NCBI GenBank assembly: GCA_964414635.1
Contig: CAYPZJ010000001.1
Location: 1 to 44,255 of the forward strand
Direction: 5' to 3'
Origin: an uncultured Spirochaetia bacterium
Lineage (GTDB): Bacteria; Spirochaetota; UBA6919; CAYPZJ01
Length of the DNA: 44,255 nucleotides
Part shown: positions 3,571-35,200 of the stretch, piece after piece
How positions within the stretch are numbered: the first letter of the stretch is position 1
Layout of the letters: every line of letters begins with the position of its first letter
Made by a program: the position numbers and the translations under genes
The notes under the pieces: generated by a model
Told to the model about the DNA's origin: nothing
The model's database searches: none
The model's input: only the letters and a program-made list of their open reading frames with translations

Positions 3571-3572
3571 CG

Positions 3573-4880: not shown

Positions 4881-4886
4881 ACTACT

Positions 4887-6748: not shown

Positions 6749-6823
6749 GGTTTCTCCTCATCTGGTGGTTCGGGTATTCGTCTGACTTGGGATTCCCCAT
6801 CCTGAATACCACGAACAGCATTT

Positions 6824-7762: not shown

Positions 7763-8104
7763 GAATTTTCCGCTTTCTCTTATTCCGAATAGGTTAATCA
7801 GCTCTGCCAACAAGGGTTCGAATACTACTCGTAAACGAACTCAAACCGTGTGTCAAATTGCACAAGCCAAATTTAAACGCGGCGGATGCTTCGGATTGGG
7901 GTTCGTAATCAGAACCATTTCCAAACCAACTCGCTTGTTTTAACACCGATTACCATGCTTTCCTTACAAAAAACCAATTTTCGCACTTTCTTGTATCACG
8001 ACAACTAGAAAACAAATCCCATAGTAAAAAGTAAACATTAATAAGTAGAAAAGGATGTGTATTCAAGTATATCGGTATTGTACCGATTTTATGTATGCGG
8101 AATG

Positions 8105-15594: not shown

Positions 15595-16617
15595 TTATGG
15601 AAGTGCACACGGATCAGGGGTAATGGCATCACCAAAGAAACAAAACTTCACTCCTCCATCCAGATGATCACAAGCTGGGATTGCACAATCCGCATCGGTT
15701 TGACAGTGAATAACTTCATTGCTTTCATTGACACAAGGACCATTACTTGATGAATTCCAACAACACCCTGTCGCTGTGCCCGGATCAGCCTTTTGGCGAT
15801 AGAATACAGAGAATTCCAGTAGCAGTGCTTCTTCTTCCCGATAGGCAAATTGTGGGTCATCATCCATAATAAAACCCGCACTATTAGGTACTTGAAAAAT
15901 CCCAGAATAATCCGAATAGATTGGATTCGACCCCCCATATATTTCTTCCTTATACGAAGTTACATTTCCATCGGAGAAAAATTGATATTCAATCAGAATC
16001 ATGTCTATTTCCTGCCAGATGGAAGCATCCCCGATTTGGGTTTGTTGCTGGCGTTCATAGCGGGATTGCCATGTTCCTGTAAGTAAGGGCGTCGGCTCCC
16101 CTCCATCGATTCGATTAAAAGACCGAAACGCCAGCTTTTCATCATCCACATAAAAACTTACAATATAGCTTTCCAAGTCATGGGAAGGAAGTTCCGGATC
16201 ATTCGTAGTAAAGGATTCCTCCATGAGAAAAATCGAATCAATCGGTATAGTATCTTTCCCAACCGTACGCTGAATCGTTCCTTCGGTTTCATTCCACCAT
16301 TGGAACGTTCCAGTTGTGGTATCTGTTTTATAATAATTCCACTGTTTTGCATCCATCGGATCCGGTCTGTATTCTTTTAGCTCTCGGGTATATGTTCCAC
16401 TTGGATTGTAGGTTTCATCGGTTGTGAAACTATATGTTTCCTCATAAATCCGTGCCCCTTCCACCCGTTCATTTAGAAATGTTCCATTAATAATGCTATC
16501 GGGAATGTATTGCCCTTGGTTGATGGGTTCACCACATGAAAACCCTCCAAGTAGTATTACAGAAAAAACAATCCCGAAAGCCCAAAAACGTGTATAGACC
16601 GTACAAGATTTAATCAT
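15595..16617 (-). CDS. Lipoprotein of unknown function with Cys-rich C-terminal tail (paralog of 16703-17578)
   Basis: Lipobox 'LLGGFSC'. It aligns with the neighbouring gene at CGE.IN.G, ING, PSGTYT, TGT.QW, YVD.EK and G.WQS. The last ~58 aa contain 8 Cys. The start is uncertain: the track uses GTG at 16686, and the ATG at 16617 gives a classical lipoprotein signal peptide. Confidence 0.65.
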   Translation of the reverse strand: MIKSCTVYTRFWAFGIVFSVILLGGFSCGEPINQGQYIPDSIINGTFLNERVEGARIYEETYSFTTDETYNPSGTYTRELKEYRPDPMDAKQWNYYKTDTTTGTFQWWNETEGTIQRTVGKDTIPIDSIFLMEESFTTNDPELPSHDLESYIVSFYVDDEKLAFRSFNRIDGGEPTPLLTGTWQSRYERQQQTQIGDASIWQEIDMILIEYQFFSDGNVTSYKEEIYGGSNPIYSDYSGIFQVPNSAGFIMDDDPQFAYREEEALLLEFSVFYRQKADPGTATGCCWNSSSNGPCVNESNEVIHCQTDADCAIPACDHLDGGVKFCFFGDAITPDPCALP

Positions 16618-16702
16618 TGCATGAACCGATAGCCAAACCTGTTGAATTGGGATTAATAATTGAGTATGCATAAATGCGGTCCTCACTTAACAAGAAAATC
16701 AG

Positions 16703-17578
16703 TTAGTTTAAGGTTTCTTTTGTATAGATTGGATAGTCCATTAGAAGCGCTTCATCTGTTAGATAAGCTGGTTTTTTTACACCATCCAATTCAAAACCTG
16801 CCGTTCCATAATAGTAATAAAACGGTTTTTCAGCACCACTTACGACGGGTTTTTTTGAAGCGATAGGGACACGACCCGGATAATTTTCCGACCGCTCCCA
16901 TGTAAACCGCCCGTTATCATACAAAACATATTTATCATAAACACTAACAACAGGAGCCCATTCGAGCAAATCATGGGGTTGATACAGCTGAAAGTACGAT
17001 TGCCAAATGCCTTCAAAATCTAAATCTACTTCATCATCGGTATTATAAATGGGCGTTTCTTCTAAATCATTTCGTAAAACAAAGGGACGAAGGGATACCT
17101 TCTCGTGGTCAACATAAATACTTAAGATATGCCGATATAAAATGGATGTATCAAATGATGTGGCATTGGCTCCACTTGCTTCTCGGCTTGTTTCGATAAA
17201 CATGATATGATTAAGGGGAATGAAATCCGATGCATTTTCACCAAACGTATATGTATACCCCTCGTGTTGTGCCCATTGATAGGTTCCTGTAATGGTCATC
17301 ACCGTTTCATTAATTTCCGAAGGAGTATCGGGATCTAAATTTTGAATTATCTTCTTATTCGTATAGGTACCACTGGGTAAAATTCCATCCGATGTAAACT
17401 GATACCGTTCTATAATTTGCTCGTATCCGGTGTAAGAAATATTTATATATACACCATTAAGGATGTTGGTTACAGGCGGGGTGCCTCGATTAATTCCCTC
17501 TCCGCAGGATAGTAAAACGAATCCTACCATGAGAATAAGCATACATATAATTGCAATGTGAGGCTTGTGTCGGCTCAT
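16703..17578 (-). CDS. Lipoprotein of unknown function (paralog of 15595-16617, no Cys-rich tail)
   Basis: The ATG at 17578 is preceded by GGAGG at 6 nt (the track start at 17644 is TTG). The signal peptide and lipobox are 'MSRHKPHIAIICMLILMVGFVLLSC'. Confidence 0.7.
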   Translation of the reverse strand: MSRHKPHIAIICMLILMVGFVLLSCGEGINRGTPPVTNILNGVYINISYTGYEQIIERYQFTSDGILPSGTYTNKKIIQNLDPDTPSEINETVMTITGTYQWAQHEGYTYTFGENASDFIPLNHIMFIETSREASGANATSFDTSILYRHILSIYVDHEKVSLRPFVLRNDLEETPIYNTDDEVDLDFEGIWQSYFQLYQPHDLLEWAPVVSVYDKYVLYDNGRFTWERSENYPGRVPIASKKPVVSGAEKPFYYYYGTAGFELDGVKKPAYLTDEALLMDYPIYTKETLN

Positions 17579-17914
17579 ACATACCTCCAACGGGCTGGGT
17601 ATCCTACCTTTGTAAAGTATAACAAATCTCACAACAATTCGCAACTAGAATCTATTCTTTATGCGGTTATTATATCCAGATGAATCAGAAAACACGATGG
17701 AGAATCATATAGTTTCCCTTGTTCGCATCATATATACCTTTCCGATATCTCCACACTGTTTGTGAAAAAGGCGGAGCGTCGTGTATGTTTACTGCGATGT
17801 ATTATGATTTGTTAATCGTTTGAAGTACAGCTAACGACCCGAGGTGAATAAAAACAAGGAAAACAATCGAAAAAAATCGATCACGGTGTTAAACTAAAGA
17901 AAGAGAGGTTGTTT

Positions 17915-18778
17915 ATGAAACGACTAGGATTTACGATTGCTTGGATAGGGTTGCTCACATTATTCGTTTTCGGAGGTGTGGTTTCTCTTCACGCCCAAGG
18001 ATCCGCTTCGGATGGATTTAATCTTGTATCCACAGGAACAACGCCCCGACAACAATTGACACTACAATGGACGGATCAGGAGATACGGTATGAAGTCCAT
18101 GTGGAAATGACTATGGCTTTGGGTCCCCTTGGGGAAACGAAAACCATTATGGAGATGGATGTGGGGTTTCAAAAAATTCAACAAGTACGAAACGGTGATA
18201 CGCAATTACGCGTTACCTTTTATAACCCCTCGGGAATACTCACCTTATTTGGTGTGGAAAACCCGATACCAGCCCTTCAACGTCTTCATCAAGCGTATTT
18301 TACAATGACAGCCAGTCCCCAGGGTAATTTTCGGGACATTCAACTTTCACCAGGACTCCAAGAAATTCTGCAGGATCAGAATATTTCCGTTACCGATCAA
18401 TTCCTACGATTCTTTTTAGCACTCCCGGATGAACCAATTGGGAGAGGAGCGATCTGGAAAAACGAGTTTGAACTCCCTATTAATTTACATTATGGCGCAT
18501 TGCTAACAAAAACAATCCAAACCGTCCGCTATAATGGCGTAACCAGAGGATCGCTTGCTGAATTTATGGTTTCGGGAACGATCCAAGCCCGGTCTGATAC
18601 CACTTCAGAAAATACAGGAAATCGTGTTCGAGGAAGCGGCGAAATAGCAGGAACCGTACGATATGATACCCAGGCAAAACGCATTGTGACAAGTGAAATT
18701 CGTCAACGGTTGAACGTAACTGTAGATACCAACCAACAAGTGGAACTTTTTCGGCTTATCCAGGTTCGATTACACTAA
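17915..18778 (+). CDS. Secreted hypothetical protein
   Basis: AGAGAGG SD lies 7 nt upstream of the ATG at 17915. The signal peptide is MKRLGFTIAWIGLLTLFVFGGVVSLHA/QG. I recognise no motif; the sequence has a beta-rich character. Confidence 0.6.
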   Translation: MKRLGFTIAWIGLLTLFVFGGVVSLHAQGSASDGFNLVSTGTTPRQQLTLQWTDQEIRYEVHVEMTMALGPLGETKTIMEMDVGFQKIQQVRNGDTQLRVTFYNPSGILTLFGVENPIPALQRLHQAYFTMTASPQGNFRDIQLSPGLQEILQDQNISVTDQFLRFFLALPDEPIGRGAIWKNEFELPINLHYGALLTKTIQTVRYNGVTRGSLAEFMVSGTIQARSDTTSENTGNRVRGSGEIAGTVRYDTQAKRIVTSEIRQRLNVTVDTNQQVELFRLIQVRLH

Positions 18779-18893: not shown

Positions 18894-20726
18894 TTAAGGC
18901 AGGCTATTTGCTTTGCGCGGAGTTGCTCGTGTGTTGAGTTCATAGCCGGGAGCGATATATTGGGGATCGGTGGTAGTGCAGCGGTGCCAACTTGCAGGAT
19001 CCGTACCATCGCCTGGATTGGTTGGATTCCGTTCCATCGAATAGGAGATGCCACCCTCATAGCCACCTTTTGTAAGGGGGATATTCGTACCATTCCATGC
19101 TTCATCCACAATTTGTCCCAACGAGTTCTTTAACGTAATATGAGCATCAAACGGATTCACGGGTATAGATACATCATCCTCATCATCATCTTCTTCAATA
19201 GGAGGAGGGGACAGTTTGATATAATCGAGGTTGTTTGTATAACCATTCAGAAAAAAGTCATTTTCTGGGAACGCATTTGCCAGAATAGCATCATTCTCTC
19301 CAATATGAGGCTCTGTGATCAAAAAATATCCATTGGGTGGGATTATCGTACCTTCAACAAATCCAATATGATTCCATTTGGGATGATTGGGATATCCTGT
19401 AATACCATCGATGACCCAGTAGGCTAAATCAATTTCCTGATCGGTCATATTTCGAAGTTCGATAAACTCATTTTCCCCAAACGGTCCTGGGTAGTGGGAA
19501 CCATCTGCATGGGTAATGGGTCCCAATCCATCATCCGAAACAGGTCCTGCCCAGAATACTTCATTAATGATAACTTCGCCTGGTTGCGATTTGGTGCCCG
19601 GAAAATCATCCCCATTTTTCCATTGGTGATTCCAATTCTCAACAAATAAATCAGCTGCCCTTTGGCTATGGATAATCGTTAAGACCTCGTCGTTATTAAA
19701 ATTTGCATTATTGGACCAATTAAACGACCCTGTTAATACCTTCGCATGATCGGTACCCGCATCCACAATCATAGTCTTATTATGCAAGCGTCCACCACCA
19801 CCTTGCCAGTCCCCATATACATACGTGTTTTCATTTCCATCCATACGAATTTGCAGGTTTCCATTGGTTTCCTGAAGTGCACTAATTAACCGAAATACTT
19901 CTACATGCATACTGTGCGTTAACTGGGATCGATCCAGCACCCCACGTACTTGTACGCCTCGTTTGGCTGCTTGAATCATCAGCTCACCCATTTCCGATTT
20001 TGTAAACGCAAAAATCATAAAGTATACATTATCCGTAGCCTCTTGAAGCGCTTTGTAAAACTTAGTAATCGGTGCTTCATGAGGTGAAAAATATACTTCC
20101 ACACGGGTATCGCCTACTTGAAAAACATTCAGGTTATCCGTAAGGGTTTTTGAATGCCCGAATTTCCCATTAAACATCTGTTCGAACTCCCGGGTGAAAT
20201 CCGCCGCTACATCCCGATCATAAATAATCATAGCATTGTTATCATTGTGTTCCATTCCACTGGTTGTAATGTTAGATGTGCCTGTAAATACCACCCGATT
20301 ATCTGCAATCAAAAATTTATTATGCATAATACTTGGATTATTCCCACTTACACTGGGGATATCATTTTCTACCAACGCTAGGTATCCAGCATGACGAGAT
20401 TGTTTATAGGTAATGGAACCCACATGCCGGCATCGAACTCCTCGTTTGTGTGCGCTAATAATCGCATCAATAATCGCAGGATGATAGAACCCGTAAAAGG
20501 CAAAATCTAACGTCTTTTGTGCATTATTAATGATTTTAATTAATCCATCATCCATTAACGAATCGGTACCGTTATATTGTGTGGTATTGGGACTGTTGAA
20601 ATAATACTCGATATATTCAGGTTCAGTATTCATTTCACCAATAGGATTCCAAGTACAGGATGAAAACCCCAAACCGAGTAGTTGAATCACCAGGATAATC
20701 AGAATAAAAATGCGGTATTTAGCCAT
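18894..20726 (-). CDS. Exported phospholipase-D-superfamily enzyme (two intact HKD motifs) fused to a C-terminal lamin tail domain (LTD)
   Basis: Lipobox 'LGLGFSSC'. HKD1 is 'HNKFLIADNRVVFTGTSNIT' (His codon ~20322-20324). HKD2 is 'HNKTMIVDAGTDHAKVLTGSFNWSNNA' (His codon ~19782-19784). The LTD covers ~18900-19590 ('VIINEVFWAG...NEFIELRN...DLAYWVI'). The ATG at 20726 has GGAGA 6 nt upstream. Confidence 0.85.
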   Translation of the reverse strand: MAKYRIFILIILVIQLLGLGFSSCTWNPIGEMNTEPEYIEYYFNSPNTTQYNGTDSLMDDGLIKIINNAQKTLDFAFYGFYHPAIIDAIISAHKRGVRCRHVGSITYKQSRHAGYLALVENDIPSVSGNNPSIMHNKFLIADNRVVFTGTSNITTSGMEHNDNNAMIIYDRDVAADFTREFEQMFNGKFGHSKTLTDNLNVFQVGDTRVEVYFSPHEAPITKFYKALQEATDNVYFMIFAFTKSEMGELMIQAAKRGVQVRGVLDRSQLTHSMHVEVFRLISALQETNGNLQIRMDGNENTYVYGDWQGGGGRLHNKTMIVDAGTDHAKVLTGSFNWSNNANFNNDEVLTIIHSQRAADLFVENWNHQWKNGDDFPGTKSQPGEVIINEVFWAGPVSDDGLGPITHADGSHYPGPFGENEFIELRNMTDQEIDLAYWVIDGITGYPNHPKWNHIGFVEGTIIPPNGYFLITEPHIGENDAILANAFPENDFFLNGYTNNLDYIKLSPPPIEEDDDEDDVSIPVNPFDAHITLKNSLGQIVDEAWNGTNIPLTKGGYEGGISYSMERNPTNPGDGTDPASWHRCTTTDPQYIAPGYELNTRATPRKANSLP

Positions 20727-20773
20727 TTCATATCTCCACATTGCAAGCTGGGATGGATTACTCCCTCATTGAA

Positions 20774-21982
20774 TCAGGGAATGGGATTTGTAGTTGGCGA
20801 ACCCCAAATTCCATCGAATACAATAAATTTAAAAAAATCGGAAAAATATTTCGTATGATTCGTTCCATTGGGATGTAACCTTCGAATAATTATCAGAGTA
20901 CTATCCCCAAAATCCACCCAATTATCAAATTGAGCATCGTGATATACTTCAGTAAACCCATTCGAATATATACAAATAGTTTCACGATCCAAGGCTTCAT
21001 CAATGATAAGTACGTTGCCCCCGATCCGAGAAGCAGGATCATCATATATTTGCACCGAACCCAGAAACTCATCTCGAAATCGTGCACCAAGGGTTGCATC
21101 AAGTCCATCTGCATTCACAATCCCCATAACTGTAAATGGGTATACCGGATCCGTTTGCCCTGTGGGGATGTAAGAAAATGTCCGCTTATAATGCAACGCA
21201 TCATACAATGCAGCGTCACTAAACGAAGAAGCAAGAAAATGAACCGATTGTTCTGCCCGATACACTTCTTTAATAAGCTCAGACATGGGGAATTCCTGGG
21301 GTCCAAAATAAAGGGTCACTTCAAAATCATGCGTCTGATACGTGTAGTAGGTATTTCCTGCTTTTAAGGGTGCGCTATCGTACGGTGCCCAGGCTTCACC
21401 AAATACGCCATGAACCAGTTGATTAAACTCCTGATCAAAATCTTCAGCGATTTTTTCGGAATAGATATCTAATCCAAAAGTATGCGTCGTATTAAAATCC
21501 CACCATGTCACCGGAGACCCAGCGATCCAGGTATACATTTCATCAATAATACAAAAATTATGAGACATATCACTCGTATACGTTCCTCGTGTCTTACCAT
21601 CCCCAAATGTACAAGGGATTCCCGCACTTAACAATTGTACCGAACTATAGTCACCTGAATAATCAATATCTGAAACGTATTCAACCTGTACACCACGGTT
21701 CTGTGCTTGAATCATAGCATCCGCAATAGCCGGAAAATCAAACCTGGAAAAGGCACATTTGACCGTGCGTTCAGACTGGTTGATATGTTCTATTAATTTT
21801 TCATCCATGAGGTTAGGATAGGAACCAGGCATCGCAAAATATCCTTCTAAAAAGGCAAGGTAATGGTCAGGTGTACTTTGAAAATTGTTGTTCCAGGAAC
21901 ATGCACTAGCAAGGATACTACTGCATAATAGCATGATTCCAATCCGTAAGATTTTATATCGCTCGTTCTTAGGCATAATCAT
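20774..21982 (-). CDS. PLD-like lipoprotein with both HKD motifs degenerate (predicted pseudoenzyme)
   Basis: Lipobox 'ILASAC'. It is collinear with the PLD part of 18894-20726 (e.g. 'FPAIADAMIQAQNRGVQV' vs 'HPAIIDAIISAHKRGVRC' and 'IAEDFDQEFNQLVHGVFG' vs 'VAADFTREFEQMFNGKFG'). Motif 1 reads 'HNFCIIDEMYTWIAGSPVT', so Lys and Asn are lost. Motif 2 reads 'GGNVLIIDEAL', so His and Lys are lost. Confidence 0.8.
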   Translation of the reverse strand: MIMPKNERYKILRIGIMLLCSSILASACSWNNNFQSTPDHYLAFLEGYFAMPGSYPNLMDEKLIEHINQSERTVKCAFSRFDFPAIADAMIQAQNRGVQVEYVSDIDYSGDYSSVQLLSAGIPCTFGDGKTRGTYTSDMSHNFCIIDEMYTWIAGSPVTWWDFNTTHTFGLDIYSEKIAEDFDQEFNQLVHGVFGEAWAPYDSAPLKAGNTYYTYQTHDFEVTLYFGPQEFPMSELIKEVYRAEQSVHFLASSFSDAALYDALHYKRTFSYIPTGQTDPVYPFTVMGIVNADGLDATLGARFRDEFLGSVQIYDDPASRIGGNVLIIDEALDRETICIYSNGFTEVYHDAQFDNWVDFGDSTLIIIRRLHPNGTNHTKYFSDFFKFIVFDGIWGSPTTNPIP

Positions 21983-22019
21983 ATCATCCTATTGTTTTCT
22001 GAAGTTATTCCCAAAAAAA

Positions 22020-22706
22020 TTAATATTGCGATTGACACGGTTCACCCGGGGAAGCAAAGGTACGGGTACGATATCCCTCAGCAACATGCACGCCGGTATG
22101 GGAAGCACTATAGGTATACCAGCTGGATACACTCACGCCATCGCTGGTGAAATAATCCTGATCCCGTTCCATGGATCGAGCCGTATACCCATCGGTAGAA
22201 CCACCCATCGGAAGTTGATCACTGATTCCTACTGGTTCCCCTAGCTGTTTATAAGCACTCCAAATGGTTATTCTAAAATATCGATCCGGAATTGTAAGAT
22301 GGGGTAAGGCTACATGGAGAACATCTGTAAGGGGGAAAGCATGATTCGTATTATTGGCAACAATGAAAAAGGCATCGGGATAGAGGATAAAATCCGGGTT
22401 TTGAGGGATAACAACCGTTTTGCGGACAACTCCTTCGAAAGTAAAATACCAGCCAGACATATTTACTGGTATTTCTGTTTGATTTTGGATTTCAATGAAG
22501 TCATCATCGGGATAATAGGTTCCTGCATCATCGTAAGAACCTGCCCACATCACTTCGGAGATAATAATCCCTCCCCGATCAGCAAATCCCCCTAAATTAT
22601 TTTCATAGAAGGAGGTGTATGGATCTTCATCCCAAGTGCATCCTATCATTGCCCAAATTACCAATCCGAGCACGCCAATGAGGATTTGTATTGTTTGTTT
22701 TCCCAT
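22020..22706 (-). CDS. Stand-alone lamin-tail-domain (LTD) lipoprotein
   Basis: GGAAGGGGG SD and lipobox 'AMIGC'. 'IIISEVMWAGSYDD...DDFIEIQNQTEIPVNMSGWYF' aligns with the LTD of 18894-20726. Confidence 0.8.
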   Translation of the reverse strand: MGKQTIQILIGVLGLVIWAMIGCTWDEDPYTSFYENNLGGFADRGGIIISEVMWAGSYDDAGTYYPDDDFIEIQNQTEIPVNMSGWYFTFEGVVRKTVVIPQNPDFILYPDAFFIVANNTNHAFPLTDVLHVALPHLTIPDRYFRITIWSAYKQLGEPVGISDQLPMGGSTDGYTARSMERDQDYFTSDGVSVSSWYTYSASHTGVHVAEGYRTRTFASPGEPCQSQY

Positions 22707-22724
22707 GTTTTCTGCCCCCTTCCG

Positions 22725-24377
22725 TTAGAATTTGACCATGGTACCTAATTCAAGGGACATCGTTGGAGCAGTACCTCCAAATGCGGTTCCGGTATCCGCA
22801 TGAGGATCGGTTCCTCCCGCTAATTCCGTAATTTCAATTTCATAGTATGATCCTGGAAAAAACATCCCTGCTCGAATAAACATATCCCATTCTTGTTCCA
22901 TATCCGGTTTAGTCAGGTGGAATAATACTTCCACGTCCCATTCAAAACCTAGCATTTTTCCGAATCGTTCCTGGGCTTCTATTTCTTCTGCACTCATCCA
23001 ATCGTTGGATGCTATATTGGAAAAGTCAAGAATATCTGTAGCATTAGTATCCCAATACAACCAACCCGCTGCATTTATTGTTAATTGATGAAAGGGACTA
23101 AATCCAGCTCCCAAATTAATAAAAAATGTCCCGCTTTTGCGATTATATCGTTGTGGTGTGTTATCAATCCCATCGTCATCAGTATATGCGCTAGGGTGAA
23201 ACCCGTTTAGTTTATTCACAATAAAACCACCCATTTGACTTCCTTTAAAGGAAACAAATCCATTTCGTGTCATATATCCATCCCCACGGTAATGTCCGCC
23301 AGAAGCATACCAACCATTAAGCCAGGCATCTAAGCTTATGCGTTTGCTTAATCTTATGCTAGCTTCGCCCCCCAGATTTATTGCAAACCCCAAATTATCC
23401 ACAATAGGTGCTCCATAGGCTCGTTGATCCACACCATAGGAAAAAGCCGCATCCAGAAATGCTTTGATATCATAGGTGTTTTCTTGTTGGAATTTGGCAA
23501 TCCCACGAATCCCGCCCATTGTGGAGTAATCATCATCCCCAAAATTCGCAATCTGTCCATTAATACTACGATCGGAGCCTCCGCCTGGTAGCGCACCAAA
23601 TTTTGCGAAGAAAAAATAGGCTTTCATATCCAAAAAGGAAACCAACTTCTGATCGCTTTCAAAAATAGCCCCCATCCGCAATGTATTCACATCCCCGCGC
23701 ATTCCAATATCTTCGTTTTCCCGATGGGTATGGATTCTCAGATAATCATAAGGAGAAACATCAACTCCCATACCAAACAAATCGAATGCCAGCACTCGGA
23801 TAGAAAATTTCTGGATCACATCGAATTGGAGTACGACCGCATCCAACACGTCTTTTAACATATAATCATGACTCATTCCACCAATTTGGAAAAATTGTCG
23901 CCCTATCTTTATATTGAATAGAAAATTAGGTTGTTCTACCAGATCCCCTTCGATATATAAATTCAGGAAATTAAGCAAGGCACCGCCCATGCCCTCGGAA
24001 GAGCTGGACAGTTGATCTTTCCCCCAGAAACCAGATTGAGCAAGATTCATATGAAATTTCATATTATAAAATTCTGGGATTAATAAACCAAAATTCAACT
24101 GTACCCCTTCCAATACAACCATCGTTGCATCATCGGTATCAAATATGGTATCATCGGATTCTTCATCTGTTGGCGTGAAATCACGATTATTAAACAGAAT
24201 TCCGTGGGTTTCAAAACTTAGATCGAGGATTAAGCGATCACTTAAAAACCCGCCAGCAAAAGATTGATCGGGGTTTGTATCCATCGTGGTTGTTAAATCA
24301 TCGGATTGATCGGCATACACCACAAGTACGGGAATCATCAGAAGAAGGGTTGTGAAGAGAGTCACAATCAATTTCAT
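22725..24377 (-). CDS. Outer-membrane beta-barrel (porin-like) protein
   Basis: Signal peptide MKLIVTLFTTLLLMIPVLVVYA/DQ (ATG at 24377 with AAGGAA upstream; the track start at 24395 is TTG). It has alternating amphipathic beta-strand character, is rich in Gly and aromatic residues, and ends in the terminal beta-signal '...LELGTMVKF'. The family is not assignable by eye. Confidence 0.7.
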   Translation of the reverse strand: MKLIVTLFTTLLLMIPVLVVYADQSDDLTTTMDTNPDQSFAGGFLSDRLILDLSFETHGILFNNRDFTPTDEESDDTIFDTDDATMVVLEGVQLNFGLLIPEFYNMKFHMNLAQSGFWGKDQLSSSSEGMGGALLNFLNLYIEGDLVEQPNFLFNIKIGRQFFQIGGMSHDYMLKDVLDAVVLQFDVIQKFSIRVLAFDLFGMGVDVSPYDYLRIHTHRENEDIGMRGDVNTLRMGAIFESDQKLVSFLDMKAYFFFAKFGALPGGGSDRSINGQIANFGDDDYSTMGGIRGIAKFQQENTYDIKAFLDAAFSYGVDQRAYGAPIVDNLGFAINLGGEASIRLSKRISLDAWLNGWYASGGHYRGDGYMTRNGFVSFKGSQMGGFIVNKLNGFHPSAYTDDDGIDNTPQRYNRKSGTFFINLGAGFSPFHQLTINAAGWLYWDTNATDILDFSNIASNDWMSAEEIEAQERFGKMLGFEWDVEVLFHLTKPDMEQEWDMFIRAGMFFPGSYYEIEITELAGGTDPHADTGTAFGGTAPTMSLELGTMVKF

Positions 24378-24525
24378 AGCTTCATTCCTTTTCAAAGTTA
24401 CATTCTGTAGCCTTAGCCACAGTAATAGCAGGTGATGGGTTTATTTATAGTAATGTGCGACAAAGCCACACGATTTTCTTTATCAGAATACTCTATCATA
24501 AGTTGTATGGATCTACTACAAACCC

Positions 24526-25743
24526 CTATCTTTTAGCATAGGCATAACTTGCAGGTGATACCTGGTAACTAATATTATCTGGATCTACATCTCCAGGTAT
24601 ATCGGGGTCCGGTTCTAAAACAAAGGCTGCATACGTATAGGCGATCCCTGCGACAGCTAACGTATCGGTATGCGCCGCACCAGTACCCTGATAAATACGC
24701 ATTCCATCAGCAGGACTTGTAGGAATCCTTTCAGTAGATTCGTTGCGCATAATCACAATGTTTAACCCCGTTGGATTACTCCAGGAAAGGCTAATACCAC
24801 TTGCATCGCTCGTTGCAGTAAAAGATGGAATTTTTGGAAATACGGGTTTTATAATTTGGAGTTGATCTGCAGAATAATAAATAAATCCAATATCGCTGTA
24901 GCTAATATACCCAGGACCAGTAAAAATTACCTGGGTACCCAACTCCATTGGTAATTGGATGCGCCCGGTATCATAATCCAATAATAACTTCCAGGAGGTC
25001 CCATCCACTTCTCGAATGGTATTCAAAGCAAACGTATCATCGGATGAAGCTACTGCGGTGACAAATCCTGTGATACGAAATACTTTGTTTATGAAAATCG
25101 TCAGATCCTTAGAAGTATCCCAAAATGGTTTTGCAAGTTCGGTTGCTAAATCCGAAACCATTTGATCTGTCATAACTTGGTATGACACAGGATTTAAGGT
25201 GCCATTGGGGGTAATCCGTCCGTGATTGGTTACTATTTCCCATTCCAAGACGATAGGGACATCATAACTTTTACGAGCTAGTGTCACATGCATATCAATG
25301 CGATCACCCGGCCATACATTCGCATCAATCATATTTTTAGTTAATACCATTAGACCAGCCTGGGAATCCTGCATCCAGAAGCATCCATAGTGGCGAATAT
25401 CTCCCCATGCGTCCATGGGTGCGCTATCATACATATATTTATAATAATAGGTTGGATAGGAAGTGACGGTTCCGCTAATCATAATATCCACAGGAGTTTC
25501 AAAATAGCTGTTGAAGCTGTTGATTAAAGTGCGAATATTTCCATCTTCCGTATAGGGTTGATTGGTAAAAACCACATCCAAACCAACAGAGGAAGCAGGG
25601 GGATTCGGTACAATAGAATCACCATTCGGAACGGTACATCCTATACAACAGACGATTATCCCAAGTAAGATTATCATATAAATTCCTGAGAACACGTTTT
25701 TGAACGGGGTTGTTGGGGTAATGGGTTTTAATACGGGTTGCAT
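24526..25743 (-). CDS. Surface lipoprotein with C-terminal FN3-like domain
   Basis: GAGGAAA SD and lipobox 'CCIGC'. The ~250-aa N-terminal domain is unrecognised. The C-terminal 'ISLSWSNPTGLNIVIMRNES...PADGMRIYQGTG...YTYAAFV' has the same FN3 flavour as one module of the giant protein. Confidence 0.7.
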   Translation of the reverse strand: MQPVLKPITPTTPFKNVFSGIYMIILLGIIVCCIGCTVPNGDSIVPNPPASSVGLDVVFTNQPYTEDGNIRTLINSFNSYFETPVDIMISGTVTSYPTYYYKYMYDSAPMDAWGDIRHYGCFWMQDSQAGLMVLTKNMIDANVWPGDRIDMHVTLARKSYDVPIVLEWEIVTNHGRITPNGTLNPVSYQVMTDQMVSDLATELAKPFWDTSKDLTIFINKVFRITGFVTAVASSDDTFALNTIREVDGTSWKLLLDYDTGRIQLPMELGTQVIFTGPGYISYSDIGFIYYSADQLQIIKPVFPKIPSFTATSDASGISLSWSNPTGLNIVIMRNESTERIPTSPADGMRIYQGTGAAHTDTLAVAGIAYTYAAFVLEPDPDIPGDVDPDNISYQVSPASYAYAKR

Positions 25744-26167
25744 AGGGTTTCCTCTAGTTAAGCTGCGTACGCTGCTTGGAAGAAGCTAAATACTAAATAC
25801 GGTGTATTTTATAGAGAATAAAAACCAATATGGGGCTCATAATAGTTCTAATCATACATAGGCACGGATTTCTTGGAATTGATTTGGATACAACCAATTC
25901 TATGATCCGACCCTTCCCCTATATCGTACTCATTCAGATCCTATGATGTGTGTTAAGACGTGTATTAAACACGTTGTTATAATGCTCGAACACCATCCCA
26001 AAATACAAAGTAGTATGAGCTGTGTTTGAACCGTACGATGAAATCAGTTGTTTTGATCCGATATGTAATTTGATATTTCAACCAATTCAACGGCAATAAG
26101 GTAAGAAAAAAAAAGAAAATGGAACATTAAGAAATGATAAATCCCATTCATGAAAATAACCTGTCTT

Positions 26168-27661
26168 TCAAAAATCAGTGATTTTTGATACCCATTCTGG
26201 GTGATCAACAAATGGATTCCGATTCCCTTGTAGTTCAAATATGGTATCATTTCGAGTACGCTCTTCATCCGATACGGGAAATGTTGTATGCCATGTTTTA
26301 AGTGTGGTTTCCATTTGGTTTGTGATGTGGTATGTATCATATCCCCAATTTTGGGTATCAAAATTGACATTACCATGATACCGCGTACTAATATAGAAAT
26401 GCGCTCGAGCTACGACTCCTTTATGCTCATCACGAGGTTCAAACACAGTACCCGGATAATCGCCGGTACCTTTTTTACTTCCACCATTTTCCCATGTGAT
26501 GCCACCGGTTACAACTCCAAATGGATTGGTGAACCGTTGGAGGTTCGCATCTGACCATGCAGGAAATAAATGATGTAAATCAGTTTTCGCAGTTTCCCAT
26601 TCATCATAGGAGGATTGAGGCCAAGTATGCTCGCAATTATAATCCGTACTAAGAATTTGCCCGGTATATACACATTCAATGGTTCCAGGACTTCCTTCTG
26701 CAAATATGGTTTGATACATATGCTGTCGAACCGTTGTGTAATCCATAACCACATGATCATCAATTAATGCTTGTAATTCCAGGATAAACGCTTCATCGGA
26801 TAAACTGGTATTCACATCCTGATAATAAGCAATAACCGGGTCAACCCATGTTCCCGTTGTAAAACCAAGCGTATGAATATACGGTTCGGAAAGTGGTTCA
26901 TGAAGAGAAGTGGTAACTGCAGCAAGTACCTTTATTTTATACGTTGTATTATCCTGCAAACGATTTGTAGGGGTAAGAATAAATTCTTTATTCAAATTTT
27001 GAGCTTGAGGCGGAGCTGAAAAGGTGACACAGCTACTAAAATTATCAGAAGAAAGCTGCACATTCCCTGTACAGGCTGTATCCATGGTATTTACAGTCAT
27101 GGTGGAGATATTCATCTCCCGATTAAATGTGAGTTTGATTTTTAAATCGGGAAACACATCTGTTTCTCCATCGGAAGGATCTGTGGCAATAACTGTAGGA
27201 GACCCTCCAGATCCCCCTATGGTAGTAAACCCGGTTGGGGTAATATAATCCTCACTCAATCGAATCCCTTTGACACTCACCACTCCCGTTGTAACTTTTA
27301 TCTGATAGGTGATTCCAGCTTGAAGGGATACTTTGGGTTGAAGAGAGTAATGATAATCATCAAATACTTGTGGTTGTTGAGTCATGGGAACGCAGGTAGT
27401 AAATCCATCTGCAGATACTTGGATGGTTCCTGTGCATTCATAGGTGTCAATGTTGGTTGTCATCGTTGTAGGGTCAACAATATGACTAAGCGACACAATA
27501 ATCTCCGTATCCAGCGCAACGTCGGTAGCACCATCGGTTGGAGAAAGATAGCCTACATAGAATGGATTCGGTTCATCCTGACAACGAAGGGTCAATCCCA
27601 TGCTAATCAGTAATAGGATTAGTCCTGAAGCTATATATTTTCCACTCATCATTTTAAACAT
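26168..27661 (-). CDS. Exported endonuclease I-family nuclease with two N-terminal SbsA-type Ig-like domains
   Basis: The C-terminal ~230 aa carry endonuclease I motifs: 'NCEHTWPQS', 'DLHHLFPAWSDANLQRFTNPFG', 'FEPRDEHKGVVARAHFYISTRY' and 'GNRNPFVDHPEW'. AAGGAG lies 9 nt upstream of the ATG at 27661; the track start at 27679 has no SD. A hydrophobic signal peptide is present. Confidence 0.88.
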   Translation of the reverse strand: MFKMMSGKYIASGLILLLISMGLTLRCQDEPNPFYVGYLSPTDGATDVALDTEIIVSLSHIVDPTTMTTNIDTYECTGTIQVSADGFTTCVPMTQQPQVFDDYHYSLQPKVSLQAGITYQIKVTTGVVSVKGIRLSEDYITPTGFTTIGGSGGSPTVIATDPSDGETDVFPDLKIKLTFNREMNISTMTVNTMDTACTGNVQLSSDNFSSCVTFSAPPQAQNLNKEFILTPTNRLQDNTTYKIKVLAAVTTSLHEPLSEPYIHTLGFTTGTWVDPVIAYYQDVNTSLSDEAFILELQALIDDHVVMDYTTVRQHMYQTIFAEGSPGTIECVYTGQILSTDYNCEHTWPQSSYDEWETAKTDLHHLFPAWSDANLQRFTNPFGVVTGGITWENGGSKKGTGDYPGTVFEPRDEHKGVVARAHFYISTRYHGNVNFDTQNWGYDTYHITNQMETTLKTWHTTFPVSDEERTRNDTIFELQGNRNPFVDHPEWVSKITDF

Positions 27662-28029
27662 AAACCTGTACTCCTTCATGTAGTACTAGAAAAATTTGTG
27701 CCGGATACTTCTACCGTTGCTTTTAGACCAAAAAACTTCAAAGATCATGGAAAATATACGCAGTCTAACAAGTATCCTAAGGATAACACAAAGAAGTTAA
27801 GATTTGATAAAAATTTGTTTGTTAATAATCATAGTACACAGCACCTGCAAGTTGAATCTTGGGGGCTTGAGCCCACCATTAGGAATATAAGGGTGTGTTG
27901 TTAATTTTTGAGTGCTCACACTTGCTTATATACCTTGACCCGTACCCATACAATTCAACGATTCAAAAAAACCTGGACAGCCTGTTCAATAGGTGAAAGA
28001 ACAGCATCCTGCATTCCGTTTTTTTTATG

Positions 28030-29223: not shown

Positions 29224-32200
29224 TTAGGGGCAATCATAGCTCGTTGGCTGGGCTGGCATACACACCACCTCCATATCATATAGCATTTGAATCTCGTATG
29301 GGGATAACGGACGGTCATATACCCGAACATCATCCAAATCCCCTTCCCAAAAATTGGAGATATGAGTCGGATCTGCTCCTAGATGGAGTTGATCCGTTGT
29401 AGTATTGAGCGTTTTACTCGAACTATTTGCTATCGTGCCATTTCGATAAATTTTTAGCCAGGATCCATCATATGTAAGAACCCAATGTTCCCAATCCGTC
29501 GGCATGGCTTGGGTACTATCCAGATTAGAACCCGCTCCAAATTGTCCCTCCACATTATACGGACTAAATGCATTGGTTCCGATTCCAAACGCTGTATCCG
29601 GTGTAGCATAATTTCCCCAAATAGCAGCCGGCATTTTATCAAAAGGAGTGGCTGTGTTCGATTTCAACCAAATGCTTAATGTTCGGGGAGCCGCACCAGA
29701 AATAGTTAAATCCGAGGTGGAATAGATATAATTACTCATCCCATCATAGGTGTATGCAGCATTTGAATTACTGAATCGGTCTGTAACCAGGGATCCGGCC
29801 GAACTCGTATTTCCATTATTGGATCCTATCTGATCATCCGCATTTCCTGAAAAAGTATAATACAATTCCAGCCCTTCACCTAGCCCCGGAGTAACAGAAC
29901 TGGATGATTCATACGCTCCAATAGAAAACCCCGGATCTGCTGTACGGGTTGTTCCTAAAATATCGACGGTTACATTTCCGCATGATTGGGATCCATCCCC
30001 ACAGACATTGGCACTGGTGTCTTTCCCCCCATTTACGATATGCCAAAAAATTCCACTCACTAATGTGTTTTGGGCTAATTCAAAGCTGGAATTACCAAAA
30101 TTCTGAAAGGGATCTCCCGTCCCTTCATCTGGGAGCTGAACATTATTTACAAAGAAGGGTTCAAAATTTTCCATCTCGTGGAGGGGTCCCTTAAATGTCG
30201 CTCCATCGTAGTAACTGTTTAAGACTTGTGTCGTAGCTTTCCAAATCCCATTATGCTCAAACGAAATAGCAGGGGTTCCACTAGTTTCATCGTACAAGAC
30301 CGTGTAGGTACCAGTAAATGTACCTCGCGCAACCAACATATTGTTTGTGATAAGGGGAGTGGAGGATCCTTCATAGTGCATAATTGCCATGGCACCGTTA
30401 TTCGCCGCATCGGTAATAACCGTGTTATTGCTAAGAATGGGTTCACCTGCTTGGATATGGATTCCATAATTGGTGTTAGATCCGGACGTGGAATCCACGG
30501 GTCCCGTTTCAATCACATTATTTTTGCATACCGCACCATTGGACGCTACCGTCAGATGTAAACCAACAGTGGAGCATGTACCACTACCACTAGTCACATC
30601 CCCAATCGTAATCGTATTTCGATTTACCGTTACAGTATTCGTACTATTAATAATCTTAATCCCCAATTCATCATGGGCTGAAGCTGCACCGGTGCTATAT
30701 CCAAGAGTATCAACGATGTTTCGGGCAATGTTATATGTCAGAGTTCCATTCAAAAAGATAGCCATATTTTCAATAGAAGCACCATTCGCCCGAATCAACG
30801 TATTATCCAAAATATCAACAGAGCCATTATCCAATCGTATTCCATAAGACCGTCCGCCCAAAGGTGCCGCACTACCCCCAGAAATCTCTGTATTATTGGA
30901 TATCGTGATGGTGTTGGAAACCGCATCACCTGCAATCCCCGCTGCATACGCATTCCCGGTTGTTGGACCATATCCCGTACCAATAAAATCATTGGAATCA
31001 ATGGTTACATTGGCATCATCGATATATACACCTGCAGATATTCCTGTGGTGGTATTTGTAACATTCCCTGATTGAATCGAAGTATTCCCCTGTATTACTG
31101 GGGATGTGGAATTGGAGGTCACATACACACCAAAACTTTCATCATCCGCGTTACCTGCCGTAATAGAATTCCCTGTTGTTATGCTGCCGGTAACATTTCC
31201 ATTTAATTTAATCCCATACGCTGCGGTTGTTGCATTTCCAACTATAACGGTATTCATATTGGTGATGGTGCATGTTTCACCGGCATTTTCACACGCGATC
31301 CCAATACAAGTCCCTCCCCCACCCGTCTGGATTTGACTGCTTTCAATAGAAATCGCACCTGCATCACTGATACCATATACACCATAATTTGTACTGCTTG
31401 TATTTGTACTTCCTGTGTCAATGGTACTATTAGAAATGGTAACGCTTGCATTGGATGCATAGATTCCATAGACATTCTGTGAAGCTGTTCCTAACGCACT
31501 AAAATCAATATCCGATTGATTAAACGAAAGATTCCCCCCTGATATGGCAACCGCCGTGCGTTCGGTCCCGGAAACGGTATCAATTGTACAATGGTCAATG
31601 GTTAGTTGACTTGATGTAATATCAACAGCAGTACCAGGACTTCCACTTATTGTGTTTTGTATAGTAAATCCTTTAAGGGTAACGGGTTGTGAAAGACCAG
31701 AATAGGAAATAACGGTGGTTGCTGGATAAGTGAGCATAGAAGATCCCATCGTCCGTGCACCTTCACTATAGGTTGTATCGTCATATCCTCCCTGTATTGA
31801 AACATCCGTGGTAATAGCAAGGGGTTCCGCATAGGTTCCCGCTTTTACTTTAATGGTTGTAAAATAGGGATTTGCTGTAGCAATTGTTACCGCTGCACCA
31901 ATCGTTTTTTTCGGTTCACTAGGAAGGCATCCGGATTGGGTATCATCGGACTGTGCTTGATCCACATACAAAATTGGATCCGAAAATACGATAGTATAGA
32001 TTCCTTCGGTAGGATCACTGCATCCATCTGAAAGAATCGGTGTAATACGGATTCGATACGGGGTGGCTGGTACAAATCCGGTATTCCATGTAAAGGTTGT
32101 GGATGAGGTGGTTGTCAAGGGAACCCACGACGAAAAACCTGGTCCAACCGCATATTCAATTTTATATTGACTCACCCCACTCAATGCATCCCATGTATAG

Positions 32201-35200
32201 GTAGCACTACTTCCTACTGCTGGTGACACGGGTTCATCGGTTAGGGTTACTGCATCACAACTAATGGTCCAGGTATGACTGGGTACTGTTCCTGGTTCCC
32301 AATTACCTGCTTCGTCCCTGCCAATAACATATAATTCATACATCCCAGGCATCAAATCATGGTGAACAATGGGTTGACTCACAGAATATTCGGGACTATA
32401 AAAACCCAAAGCGCCTACTTTGTATTTATAAGCTACCACATCGGTTCCACTTACAGTAATATTAATGCTGGTTGTACTACCCGATTCGGGTAAGTTGCTT
32501 AAAATCGTGGTAGGCGGGGTAGCATCAATCTCCCAGGTGAATGATTGTGCCGTAGCCCAATTTCCAGCCAGATCACGTGATTCAACTACCAGTGTGTGTT
32601 CGCCATCAGATAACCCGCTTTCTGCGATCGGAAACGCCACATTGATATCTGTTGAAAACGGAAGGGTATCAATATAATAATGATAATGACTTACTTCCGT
32701 TCCTGTAACCACCACATTGATTGAATCATCATTTACATAGGTAGGAGGCAAATTGGATAAAGAAAAACTGGGAGCTGTCAAATCAACCTGCCAATTAAAT
32801 AAGGTGGCATCCTCGACAGCCTGCCAATTTCCTACTGCATCCATCCCAAGTACTTCCAAACTAATCAAACCTTCTGATAATCCTGTTTCCGAAATAGGAG
32901 TAGCGATTGGTATCGTATCGCTCCAATTTCCACCATTCAAACGATACGTATAGGCTGTTACATCGGTACCTCCTACTGTAATGGTTGCGGAAGTATCATT
33001 CGTATGGGAAGCCGGTGTTCCGCTCAAAACAGCAGTGGGTGGTGTCCTATCAATATTCCATGAATAGGATGCGGCGGAAGGAATGGTTTCCATATTTCCT
33101 GCTGCATCGATTCCACGGATACGGACCGTTTGAGTTCCCTCTAGTAAGTTAGAAAGAGCGATGGGTGTGGCGGTATTGGGTATGGGGATCCAACTTCCTG
33201 TATTAAGTTGATATTGAAAACACACCACATCTATCCCTCCAACCAAGATGGAAGCACTTGTCTGATTCGTTGGGTTATCGGGTGTACTTAAAAATTGGGC
33301 ATCAGGTGGGGTCGTATCCACTTCAAATGAATATGTAGTAGCGGATGCAACATCCTGCCAGACTATAGAAGGAGTATCACGCTTCCCAACGACTTCCAAT
33401 GTATAATTACTTTCTCCAAGTGGACCTAATGATATGGGAGTTCCGATTGGTGTTTCCGCTGACCAGCCTCCTCCGTTAAGTTGATATTGATATGAAACAA
33501 CCTGGGTTCCTCCCACGTTAATCGTAAATGATGTTTGATTTGAATAGCGATCGGGTAGATTGCTTAACACCGCTTCCACCACACCGGTATCAATCTCCCA
33601 GGTGTAACTGGTTGCTGAACCATCCGCTTGCCAGTTCCCTGCGGCATCCCTTCCTACTACCTGTACCGTATGGCTTCCACTACTGAGGGTATGGATAATC
33701 GCAGTAGCAACAGCGGTTTCGGAAGACCATGTACCCCCATCAAATTTCACTTTATAATAGGTAACATCCGTGCCGGTAACCACAATATTTGTTTCGGTTC
33801 GATTTGACGTAGCAGCCGGTAATTGGGTTAATATCGCTAGCGGTGGGGTGGTGTCAATATTCCAACTAAATATCGTGGGAGACGCTTGATAATTTCCAAC
33901 GGTATCCCGTGCCCGAACTAATAACGTATGTGCTCCGGCACTCAAACCTGTTTCACTTATAGGCGTAGCAAGGGGGATATCACTACTCCATCCCCCTCCA
34001 TCCAGTTGATATTGATACGCACTCGCGTCCGATCCCGTAACCGAAATGGCGATACTCGTACTATTTGTTTGAATCGAAGGGGTATTTGTAAGTGTAATTG
34101 AGGGCGGTGTTAAATCAATCGTCCAGGTATAGGATTGAGCATCTTCGGGATCTTGCCAATTTCCTGCGTTATCCTTTGTAATAACAGAGAGGGTATGTTC
34201 ACCTTCTGTCAGATCCTCCAAAAACAGTTGTTGAATAATAGAACGTTCACTACTATATCCACCTCCGTCGATATCATATTTATACGTAAGCGCATCGGAT
34301 GCTTGAACGCCGACTAAAATATTGGTGCTATTGGTTGTGGATGGCGGTAAATTAAGTAAGATGGCTGTTGCGGGTAATGTATCCACGGTAAAGACAAAAG
34401 ATTGATCCGCAAAAGAAGAACAACCAGGTATTACTTGGGTATTATATGCTTTAACCTGTACACAATAGGTTCCATCCGGCAAGGCAGATTCCACTATCCA
34501 AGAGGTCGTTGTTACATTCGATTTTGATTGAATTACAGAACCGGAACAACTGGTGTTTCCATAAATCGTAAGCTCATACGTATCACCATAAGTAGGTTCC
34601 GTCCAGGATAACGTAGGATTCGGATTGTTGGTAATGGTATTCCCCGTAATTTCAAAAGCACCTGGTGTATGGCATAGATTCACTTGAGTTTTTGTTCCCT
34701 TAGTTCTACAATTATCCTGCGCGTCACAAGCGAAGAGTGAATAATACCAATTTCCATCCCCGGGATCCACTTCGGTAGTGGTTTCCTTATTTCCTGTATA
34801 AATTGAAGTCCCATCTGACACCGAAGCCGGGTATTCGTTAGATTTGCGACGCAGCATCATATATGAGAAATCTGGATCCCATTTAGGATTTGTCCAGTCT
34901 AGTGTAATTGCGTAGGAAGGTGATATCGAAGCGAGAAGGGACGGCGCTCCATAGGTGGGAGGTGTTGTATCCGCAAGTGTAGTAAATTCCCCTGCCGGAA
35001 CTGGATAGGGGTCACCGGTTAAATTATCGTACGATGCAGGTGTTAAGCGATAATAATACGTGGTTTGGGCATTCAAATCGTAGCTGACATAGGAATTACC
35101 CAAATAGTTTTCCACCAATTCAGTCAGTGAAGCGAATGTGCTCTGCGTAGATAGCTCAAGCGTCATCTGTGCCCACGAATCGGTTTCCCAAATAAAAGTC

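Follow-up and report, generated by a model that had tools for sequence, protein, structure and literature searches.

What would a bacterium do with six consecutive exported genes that set nuclease-like enzymes, candidate binding proteins and an outer-membrane barrel side by side on one strand? Such a block lies at 18894-27679 on the minus strand of a 44,255-nucleotide contig of an uncultured Spirochaetia bacterium (CAYPZJ010000001.1), which is found in microbial-mat metagenomes (JGI 3300012009; ENA PRJEB25599 assemblies) and is referred to here, at its whole length, as the window. An earlier note, made from the sequence without database searches, had taken the block for a candidate exported locus organized like a polysaccharide-utilization locus (PUL) and aimed at nucleic acid, or at DNA plus phospholipid. 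We find that the cluster is not a chance juxtaposition: it is real and conserved across several phyla. As to its role, we lean towards a TonB-independent outer-membrane module that captures, degrades and takes up extracellular nucleic acid, where nucleic acid is the substrate that we infer. All six open reading frames (ORFs) of the earlier note are present, each beginning with a signal peptide or lipobox. From the upstream to the downstream end, they are:

26168-27679, minus strand: exported endonuclease I with two N-terminal Big_5 Ig-like domains, 503 amino acids (aa) (Pfam); proposed accessory DNase
24526-25743, minus strand: lipoprotein with two OB-like modules and a C-terminal extension, 405 aa; proposed substrate-binding partner of the barrel
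22725-24395, minus strand: 18-strand outer-membrane beta-barrel with an AlgE/OprD-like fold (AlphaFold2, Foldseek), 556 aa from a TTG start or 550 aa from an ATG at 24377
22020-22706, minus strand: stand-alone lamin-tail-domain (LTD) lipoprotein, 228 aa (Pfam LTD)
20774-21982, minus strand: phospholipase D (PLD)-like lipoprotein, the pseudo-PLD, 402 aa, catalytically dead by motif (Pfam PLDc_2); proposed non-catalytic binder or partner
18894-20741, minus strand: PLD-LTD lipoprotein, 615 aa, two HKD motifs (Pfam PLDc_2 twice plus LTD)

The intergenic gaps, counted from the endonuclease I gene to the PLD-LTD gene, are 424, 130, 18, 37 and 32 bp. Because of the short gaps, we describe the barrel, LTD, pseudo-PLD and PLD-LTD genes as packed in operon-like fashion; the endonuclease I gene, behind the 424-bp gap, could form a transcription unit of its own. 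Matches to promoter and terminator consensus sequences were no commoner than in shuffled sequence. A scan of the intergenic regions for repeats returned one near-perfect 18-bp palindrome (AAGCTGCGTACGCTGCTT-like) at 25760-25777 and otherwise only short matches of the sort that chance would produce. The palindrome lies 17-34 nt ahead of the point where the gene for the 405-aa lipoprotein starts, and it could be an operator or a stem-loop. Export signals were called by eye together with conservation among orthologs. The lipobox cysteines lie in CIGC (405 aa), MIGC (228 aa), LASAC (402 aa) and GFSSC (615 aa), and they are kept among the orthologs of all four of these soluble families. The barrel starts with a type-I signal peptide that ends in ...VVYA before DQ, and endonuclease I starts with a hydrophobic signal whose last residues are LTLRC.

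The 615-aa PLD-LTD protein is the candidate catalyst of the downstream block. It contains two PLDc_2 domains (E 5e-45), and both motifs read from its sequence are intact (HNKFLIAD...GTSN and HNKTMIVD...GSFN), with both HxK(x)4D...GSxN motifs retained in 13/13 catalytic PLD-LTD orthologs. Its tail matches LTD at 34.2 bits in the full-length scan and at 36.5 bits alone, and the orthologs match LTD too, in agreement with the earlier description of a PLD with two intact HKD motifs fused to an LTD. Among NCBIfam models, NucT gave the best match (3e-21), and DrmC and DpdK also scored ahead of cardiolipin synthase (2.6e-8); PADLOC returned DrmC (E 3e-23). Matches in the Protein Data Bank (PDB) to MitoPLD/Zucchini (2.8e-13), Nuc (1byr, 8.8e-10) and NucT (6.6e-6) all rank above an entry named 'Phospholipase' (7e0m). 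This ranking is suggestive of a catalytic PLD nearest the nuclease branch (Zucchini/MitoPLD, Nuc, NucT, DrmC) and is no proof of substrate. The catalytic domain has its nearest sequence relatives in Nuc (Salmonella pKM101), NucT (H. pylori) and Zucchini/MitoPLD, with which it shares the HxK(x)4D motif. These relatives are single-domain, single-HKD homodimers of ~155-200 aa, whereas PLD-LTD carries both HKD lobes on a single chain and has, in addition, an LTD at its C-terminus and a lipid anchor.

The neighboring 402-aa protein matches PLDc_2 in its N-terminal half only (E 1.9e-10). What remains of its motifs is SHNFCIID, in which the Lys is lost, and GGNVLIID, in which both His and Lys are lost, so that the protein is indeed the PLD-like lipoprotein with two destroyed HKD motifs that the earlier note had recognized. 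Among 12 aligned orthologs, the motif 1 Lys is gone in all and the His in most, and motif 2 is found in 0/12. Loss of the catalytic residues in every ortholog argues for a maintained pseudo-enzyme rather than a decaying gene, and the fusion of the pseudo-PLD domain to LTD repeats in Leptospiraceae supports a binding role alongside LTDs. We propose that the pseudo-PLD acts as a non-catalytic binder or partner.

The assignment of the 228-aa protein as a stand-alone LTD lipoprotein holds marginally, at 34.7 bits against a cut-off of 34.3 for PF00932 (E 2.5e-8). LTDs recur on extracellular nucleases, including ExeM, Xds and an Izemoplasmatales nuclease (PMC6085458, PMC6746945, PMC8289736). At the upstream end of the cluster, the 503-aa protein matches Endonuclease_1 (PF04231) at 134.5 bits against a cut-off of 25 (E 6.7e-39) and contains two Big_5 stretches (E 9e-20), the two Ig-like domains seen previously. 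Its PDB sequence matches are Vvn (1ouo) and Vibrio EndA, and the Vvn alignment spans the downstream conserved blocks. The E-H-x-x-P catalytic-type motif EHTWP is located at residue 350, with equivalence to His80 of Vvn assigned by motif and position. The C-terminal domain is clearly a member of the EndA/Vvn/Dns family, with which the protein has export and EHxxP in common; it differs by the two N-terminal Big_5 domains and by its linkage to the cluster.

The 405-aa lipoprotein has no Pfam match of its own. Alignment of its family shows that the body of the protein is conserved and comprises two OB-like modules, while the last ~110 residues form an extension that is absent from all homologs and present in the window copy only. 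This extension is the segment that had been read as an FN3 tail, an assignment that finds no Pfam support even at E<=1 and that we drop. In a Pfam profile comparison, 8/9 members matched DUF5689 at E<=1 (best E 2.4e-6), and the family consensus scored 25.3 bits against it (cut-off 28.6); DUF5818 was matched weakly by 5/9 members, and BOF and tRNA_anti-codon by a single weak match each. From these profiles the family looks OB-fold-like. A search of its profile against PDB sequences returned nothing, and AlphaFold2 on a two-sequence alignment (one usable homolog, P0018) gave a pLDDT of 33 and no usable model.

The barrel was modeled by AlphaFold2 with 18 strands (pTM 0.72) and has the C-terminus ...MVKF that the earlier note gave for its large outer-membrane barrel. 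Foldseek places AlgE first (3rbh, E 6e-14, target-normalised TM 0.65), followed by C. jejuni MOMP and the OccD/OccK porins. The Pfam family Alginate_exp (PF13372) is matched over the C-terminal part only and below its cut-off (19.8 bits against 25.2). The barrel defines the cluster and is its rarest part: the family has 191 cluster representatives in 1.84 billion in a full hidden Markov model (HMM) scan and 11 proteins in 5.8 billion in a word-indexed search. Its most conserved feature is an invariant GFVSFKG...YTDDDGID in the long loop between strands 13 and 14, which by strand parity in the model would lie on the extracellular side. This acidic loop (GFVSFKG...HPSAYTDDDGID; residues ~359-416, window ~23150-23320) resembles Ca2+-binding DxDxDG-type motifs in its sequence. 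Pfam detected no TonB-dependent receptor, SusC or SusD domain in the six cluster proteins, and no DUF560 or TPR periplasmic domain. The 18-strand fold is common to the cluster barrel, AlgE and the OprD/Occ porins. The cluster barrel differs from AlgE in its sequence (~12% identity, sub-threshold in Pfam) and in a lumen estimated to be acidic rather than basic, and the GFVSFKG...YTDDDGID loop sets its family apart from AlgE, OprD and Occ alike. No alginate biosynthesis (alg) genes occur in any locus examined. The cluster barrel is not a member of the AlgE family.

To examine conservation, contigs with barrel homologs were looked up, GTDB genomes were scanned, and the window proteins were compared by phmmer with all ORFs of the resulting loci (denoted by L numbers). 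LTD and/or PLD genes lie beside the barrel in 30/35 assessable non-redundant loci, with carriers in Leptospirales/Turneriella, Spirochaetia, Bradymonadales/Lujinxingia, Myxococcota and other metagenome-assembled genomes (MAGs). The linkage also holds in the reverse direction: in a search of metagenomes with the PLD-LTD alignment, all relatives at 33-40% identity (L045-L049) are located in the same cluster, and the more distant PLDs lie outside it. The genes are thus co-conserved in relatives, the neighborhood conservation that the earlier note had proposed to examine. Its alternative of a generic porin is not borne out, as the barrel belongs to a rare family whose members have LTD and PLD genes for neighbors in all clades but a single derived, paralogous one, to which all five stand-alone barrels belong and whose genomes also hold a linked copy. 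The housekeeping genes neighboring the cluster in the window match the homologous-cluster loci weakly (YggS 37%).

The loci fall into three gene orders. Type A (405-like lipoprotein, barrel, LTD, pseudo-PLD, PLD-LTD) is the order in the window, Bradymonadales/Lujinxingia, Myxococcota and unclassified MAGs, and type A' (barrel, LTD, pseudo-PLD, PLD-LTD) that of Turneriella-like genomes. In type B, found in Leptospiraceae and Spirochaetia, a giant pseudo-PLD/LTD/Big_5-repeat fusion is followed by a second LTD protein, the barrel and a ~950-aa PLD-LTD. LTD orthologs directly follow the barrel in all type A loci, and in the window the LTD gene starts 18 bp past the barrel stop. A 405-like gene is positioned directly upstream of the barrel in L015, L023, L024, L030, L033, L034, L036, L042, L043 and L045. 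The distant type A' locus L022 contains all six families in another order (barrel, LTD, pseudo-PLD, PLD-LTD, 405-like, endonuclease I); its 405-family protein, downstream beside the endonuclease I gene, was identified by hhalign (probability 98.6, E 8e-16), and its endonuclease I is 33% identical to the window copy (E 5e-33). Genes of nucleobase salvage occur at varying positions within ~6 kb of several type B clusters of Leptospiraceae, encoding adenosine deaminase (L008, L009/L039, L026), uracil phosphoribosyltransferase (L008, L026, L035) and another phosphoribosyltransferase (L008, L035). Pfam scans of the genes flanking type A clusters found nothing recurrent (PEP carboxylase, LPMO-like and AstE-like proteins, and unknowns).

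Several observations on single loci stand apart from this pattern. In many type A loci, a second and more divergent 405-like paralog lies directly upstream of the first, and the window has one copy. These second paralogs are:

L042, 7606-8625: second 405-like paralog
L036, 7667-8719: second 405-like paralog
L033, 2453-3463: second 405-like paralog
L034, 7110-8441: second 405-like paralog
L024, 7721-8806: second 405-like paralog
L045, 1681-2937: second 405-like paralog

The stand-alone barrel clade, with no LTD or PLD neighbors, comprises L014, L016, L017, L018 and L019 (L021 is too short to judge), and its barrels may have a different substrate; in L019, the barrel gene lies between an Rrf2-sufBCD operon and a gene for a small multihaem cytochrome. 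Beside type B clusters, genes for a VUPS-SpoIIE phosphatase, adenosine deaminase and a ~300-aa protein travel together (L008, L009/L039, L026, L028) and may form a regulatory or salvage unit. In L040, the barrel gene is broken into two ORFs, owing either to a frameshift or to faulty assembly. Contigs of a 'Caldithrix sp.' MAG (DYKF01..., L016, L022) are near-identical in both barrel paralogs to those of a 'Turneriella parva' MAG (DYPL01..., L014, L020), and both have the SulCav sample prefix, which suggests a binning or labelling problem.

What could such a module do? A nucleic-acid substrate is favored because the PLD has nuclease-type affinities, the cluster shows two separate linkages to endonuclease I, a candidate binder that is OB-like and weakly similar to DUF5689, the DdbD family, is encoded beside the channel, LTDs occur on nucleases, and salvage genes are neighbors. 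In the mechanism that we propose, the four lipoproteins (405-aa OB-like, LTD, pseudo-PLD and PLD-LTD) would assemble on or around the AlgE/OprD-like barrel. The non-catalytic lipoproteins would hold the polymer, and PLD-LTD, as a putative metal-independent phosphodiesterase of the Nuc/Zucchini/NucT type, would cut it, assisted in the window organism by the secreted endonuclease I. Oligonucleotides or nucleotides would then cross the barrel into the periplasm, where salvage enzymes encoded elsewhere would take over. The substrate, the facing of the lipoproteins towards surface or periplasm, the physical complex and transport through the barrel are the parts of this scheme that we infer. The proposal of the earlier note is accordingly narrowed, with comparative support for a phosphodiester polymer as the target of a PUL-like exported locus, nucleic acid as the presumed polymer, and DNA binding by the LTDs a conjecture. 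We regard it as quite possible, short of probable, that the cluster is a previously undescribed TonB-free outer-membrane machine for nucleic acid, evolved separately from the Ddb system of Bacteroidota and common to free-living Leptospirales and predatory Bradymonadales/Myxococcota.

A number of observations weigh against nucleic acid as the substrate or against parts of this mechanism. All six cluster proteins have a low pI (4.4-4.9), an unusual property in a DNA binder. The other exported proteins of the window are equally acidic (exported proteins overall, pI 4.1-4.9) and the predicted cytoplasmic ones are not (mostly ~5-9); this suggests adaptation to a saline habitat, by which charge-based arguments about DNA binding are confounded. 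The pore of AlgE is electropositive, and the lumen-facing strand residues of the window barrel include 12 Lys+Arg against 21 Asp+Glu in a crude count made without model coordinates. At the same positions, acidic residues exceed basic ones in all 9 of nine barrel homologs, and the lining appears ill-fitting for a simple polyanion conduit. The PLD superfamily also includes phospholipases and lipid synthases, and MitoPLD, the top PDB match of PLD-LTD, is deposited as a cardiolipin hydrolase. All NCBIfam nuclease matches of PLD-LTD fall far under their curated cut-offs; the NucT equivalog NF010492 is matched at 75.7 bits against a cut-off of 297, so that PLD-LTD is NucT-like without being an equivalog. 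The DUF5689 similarity of the 405-aa family stays under the Pfam threshold and does not extend to the window copy. Endonuclease I is linked to the cluster in 2 loci only, and L015 has the barrel, LTD and pseudo-PLD genes with no catalytic PLD-LTD gene within 8 kb. The locus has no gene for a periplasmic nucleotidase, a phosphatase or an inner-membrane nucleoside transporter. The literature is undecided on a DNA-binding role of bacterial LTDs: the domain is dispensable for the nuclease activity of Xds (PMC6746945) and partly needed in ExeM (PMC6085458).

Some of these points fit better with other readings of the same genes. The architecture could serve a different phosphodiester substrate from lysed or prey cells, such as membrane phospholipids (from which true phospholipase D activity would free head groups such as choline, ethanolamine or glycerol), teichoic-acid-type polymers or RNA only, with the barrel importing small products; we judge this unlikely. 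In its favor, the superfamily has phospholipases among its members, both PLDc and cardiolipin-synthase models match PLD-LTD, and the top PDB match carries a cardiolipin hydrolase annotation. The acidic-looking lining would be a better match for cationic or neutral head groups than for polyanions, and the carriers include predatory Bradymonadales. Both PMC6085458 and PMC6746945 cite Mans et al. 2004 for the proposal that bacterial LTDs associate with membranes. Against this reading, nuclease-type models outscore lipid-type ones (NucT 3e-21 and DrmC 3e-23 versus 2.6e-8 for cardiolipin synthase), and the neighboring genes are those of nucleobase salvage rather than of lipid or choline catabolism. 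The twofold linkage of endonuclease I and the OB-like partner lipoprotein point the same way, and none of the loci examined contained a lipase, acyl hydrolase or FadL-type channel. Import itself is the point at issue if the barrel is a Slam-like platform or translocon that displays the lipoproteins, whose enzymes would remodel extracellular DNA (eDNA) of biofilms or attack prey with no coupled uptake. The tight, reciprocal linkage of the barrel to the four lipoprotein genes is consistent with such a platform, as is the acidic lumen, and the extracellular-type loop GFVSFKG...YTDDDGID, where conservation of the barrel is highest, could offer a site for docking. The nearest folds (AlgE, MOMP, OccD/K), however, are solute or polymer channels, a DUF560/TPR periplasmic domain is lacking, and the stand-alone paralog clade without lipoprotein partners fits a channel better, which makes a platform improbable in our estimate.

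DNA could also enter through the barrel for natural transformation, with the nucleases processing the strands, as has been proposed for H. pylori NucT and a DdbCD-like pair of Riemerella. NucT is the best NCBIfam match of PLD-LTD, and an AlgE-like fold threads a linear polyanion. In Riemerella, a protein of the DUF5689 family is required for natural transformation, and the transformation gene pair RA0C_RS04915/04920 is related to Ddb (PMC8459023). No ComEA, ComEC, pilus or secretin genes were found near the cluster in the loci examined, however, and one to two nucleases with active motifs among several binders look degradative. With salvage genes as neighbors and a barrel lining that is not basic, we consider transformation a little more improbable still than a platform. 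Anti-phage defense, with PLD-LTD as a DISARM DrmC-like PLD, and polymer export through an AlgE-like barrel are hardly credible, in spite of the DrmC match in PADLOC (E 3e-23) and AlgE as the top Foldseek match. All cluster proteins are exported or lipidated, whereas DISARM is cytoplasmic, and Alginate_exp is sub-threshold. We rejected defense because a generic PLD domain alone matches DrmC and no DrmA, DrmB, methylase or other DISARM component is present; export was rejected because no locus contains glycosyltransferase, polymerase/synthase or inner-membrane export genes.

How does a nucleic-acid uptake module of this kind compare with systems already described? The nearest in logic is a locus of six genes in Bacteroides thetaiotaomicron, ddbABCDEF, which is organized like a PUL and on which the depletion of exogenous DNA depends; it encodes nucleases that are lipoproteins, DdbC as a TonB-dependent transporter, and DdbD, of the DUF5689 family, as the predicted DNA-binding partner of DdbC (Sharan et al. 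2025, bioRxiv 10.1101/2025.03.18.642099). In both systems, SPII lipoprotein nucleases and a non-catalytic surface binder (in the cluster, nuclease-type enzymes by sequence and a candidate binder) are encoded together with an outer-membrane transporter, the binder gene adjoins the transporter or channel gene, and there are links to nucleobase metabolism. The cluster binder family has a weak OB-type similarity to DUF5689, the family of DdbD, that stays under the Pfam threshold. In place of the TonB-dependent transporter, the cluster has an 18-strand barrel of AlgE/OprD-like fold that lacks both a plug and a TonB box, and its nucleases are of the PLD superfamily and endonuclease I. The LTD proteins and the conserved pseudo-PLD are without a described Ddb counterpart, and Ddb belongs to Bacteroidota, whereas the cluster is found in hosts from Spirochaetota, Myxococcota and elsewhere.

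Among exported nucleases that associate with the cell envelope, ExeM (Shewanella) and Xds (Vibrio cholerae) join an LTD to OB-fold modules for nucleic-acid binding and act in eDNA degradation and nutrient acquisition, a combination that we liken to the cluster. In these enzymes, however, LTD, OB and EEP domains lie in one polypeptide, whereas the LTD, OB-like and catalytic parts of the cluster are on separate lipoproteins. Pfam found no EEP domain in the six proteins; the catalytic fold is PLD instead, and a barrel is co-encoded. With no SusC/SusD pair, the likeness to a Sus-like PUL is organizational only. The cluster falls outside the Ddb, Sus, ExeM/Xds, AlgE and DISARM families. Literature searches returned no described bacterial PLD-LTD or PLD-LTD-barrel locus, and nothing relevant for Leptospira and lamin tail. 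The earlier statement that no such locus had been described therefore stands for this composition and not for the concept, since PUL-like DNA utilization was published for Bacteroidota in 2025 with ddbABCDEF (bioRxiv 10.1101/2025.03.18.642099); the machinery of the cluster is apparently undescribed.

Further features of the window lie outside the cluster:

29224-36954, minus strand: giant exported protein of 2576 aa with Big_5, Big_13, Big_3_3, Y_Y_Y and Laminin_G_3 domains and a net charge of -171, two genes upstream of the cluster
15595-16686 and 16703-17644, minus strand: paralogous acidic lipoprotein-like proteins (313 + 363 aa, mutual E ~1e-23), just past the PLD-LTD gene
17909-18778, plus strand: convergent gene for an exported protein of 289 aa, just past the PLD-LTD gene
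2500-7813, minus strand: aerotolerance-type operon with BatA/VWA, DUF58 and MoxR (AAA_3)

The three genes at 15595-18778 have no Pfam match and were found only in copies of the window contig, not in the related loci. Aerotolerance operons of the BatA/DUF58/MoxR kind are characteristic of Leptospira and Bacteroides.

In sediments, microbial mats and biofilms, extracellular DNA makes up a large store of phosphorus, nitrogen and carbon, and to our knowledge, how the products of DNA breakdown pass the outer membrane is understood in very few two-membrane lineages. The sole dedicated DNA-utilization locus that we found in the literature dates from 2025, relies on a TonB-dependent transporter and is restricted to Bacteroidota (bioRxiv 10.1101/2025.03.18.642099). 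The cluster suggests that other phyla, with predators and saprophytic spirochaetes among them, have a second solution that works by a different mechanism. It offers testable roles for three parts that are poorly understood, namely the lamin-tail domains of bacteria, the conserved dead PLD and the rare AlgE-like barrel family, and as some carriers have cultured relatives (Turneriella, Lujinxingia, Bradymonas), the hypothesis is directly testable. If the substrate is phospholipid, the cluster would still be a new module for scavenging cell debris. If the cluster is the separately evolved TonB-free machine for nucleic acid considered above, it would provide the first physiological role for bacterial LTDs and for a PLD pseudo-enzyme, and a passive barrel that imports oligonucleotides, or even DNA.

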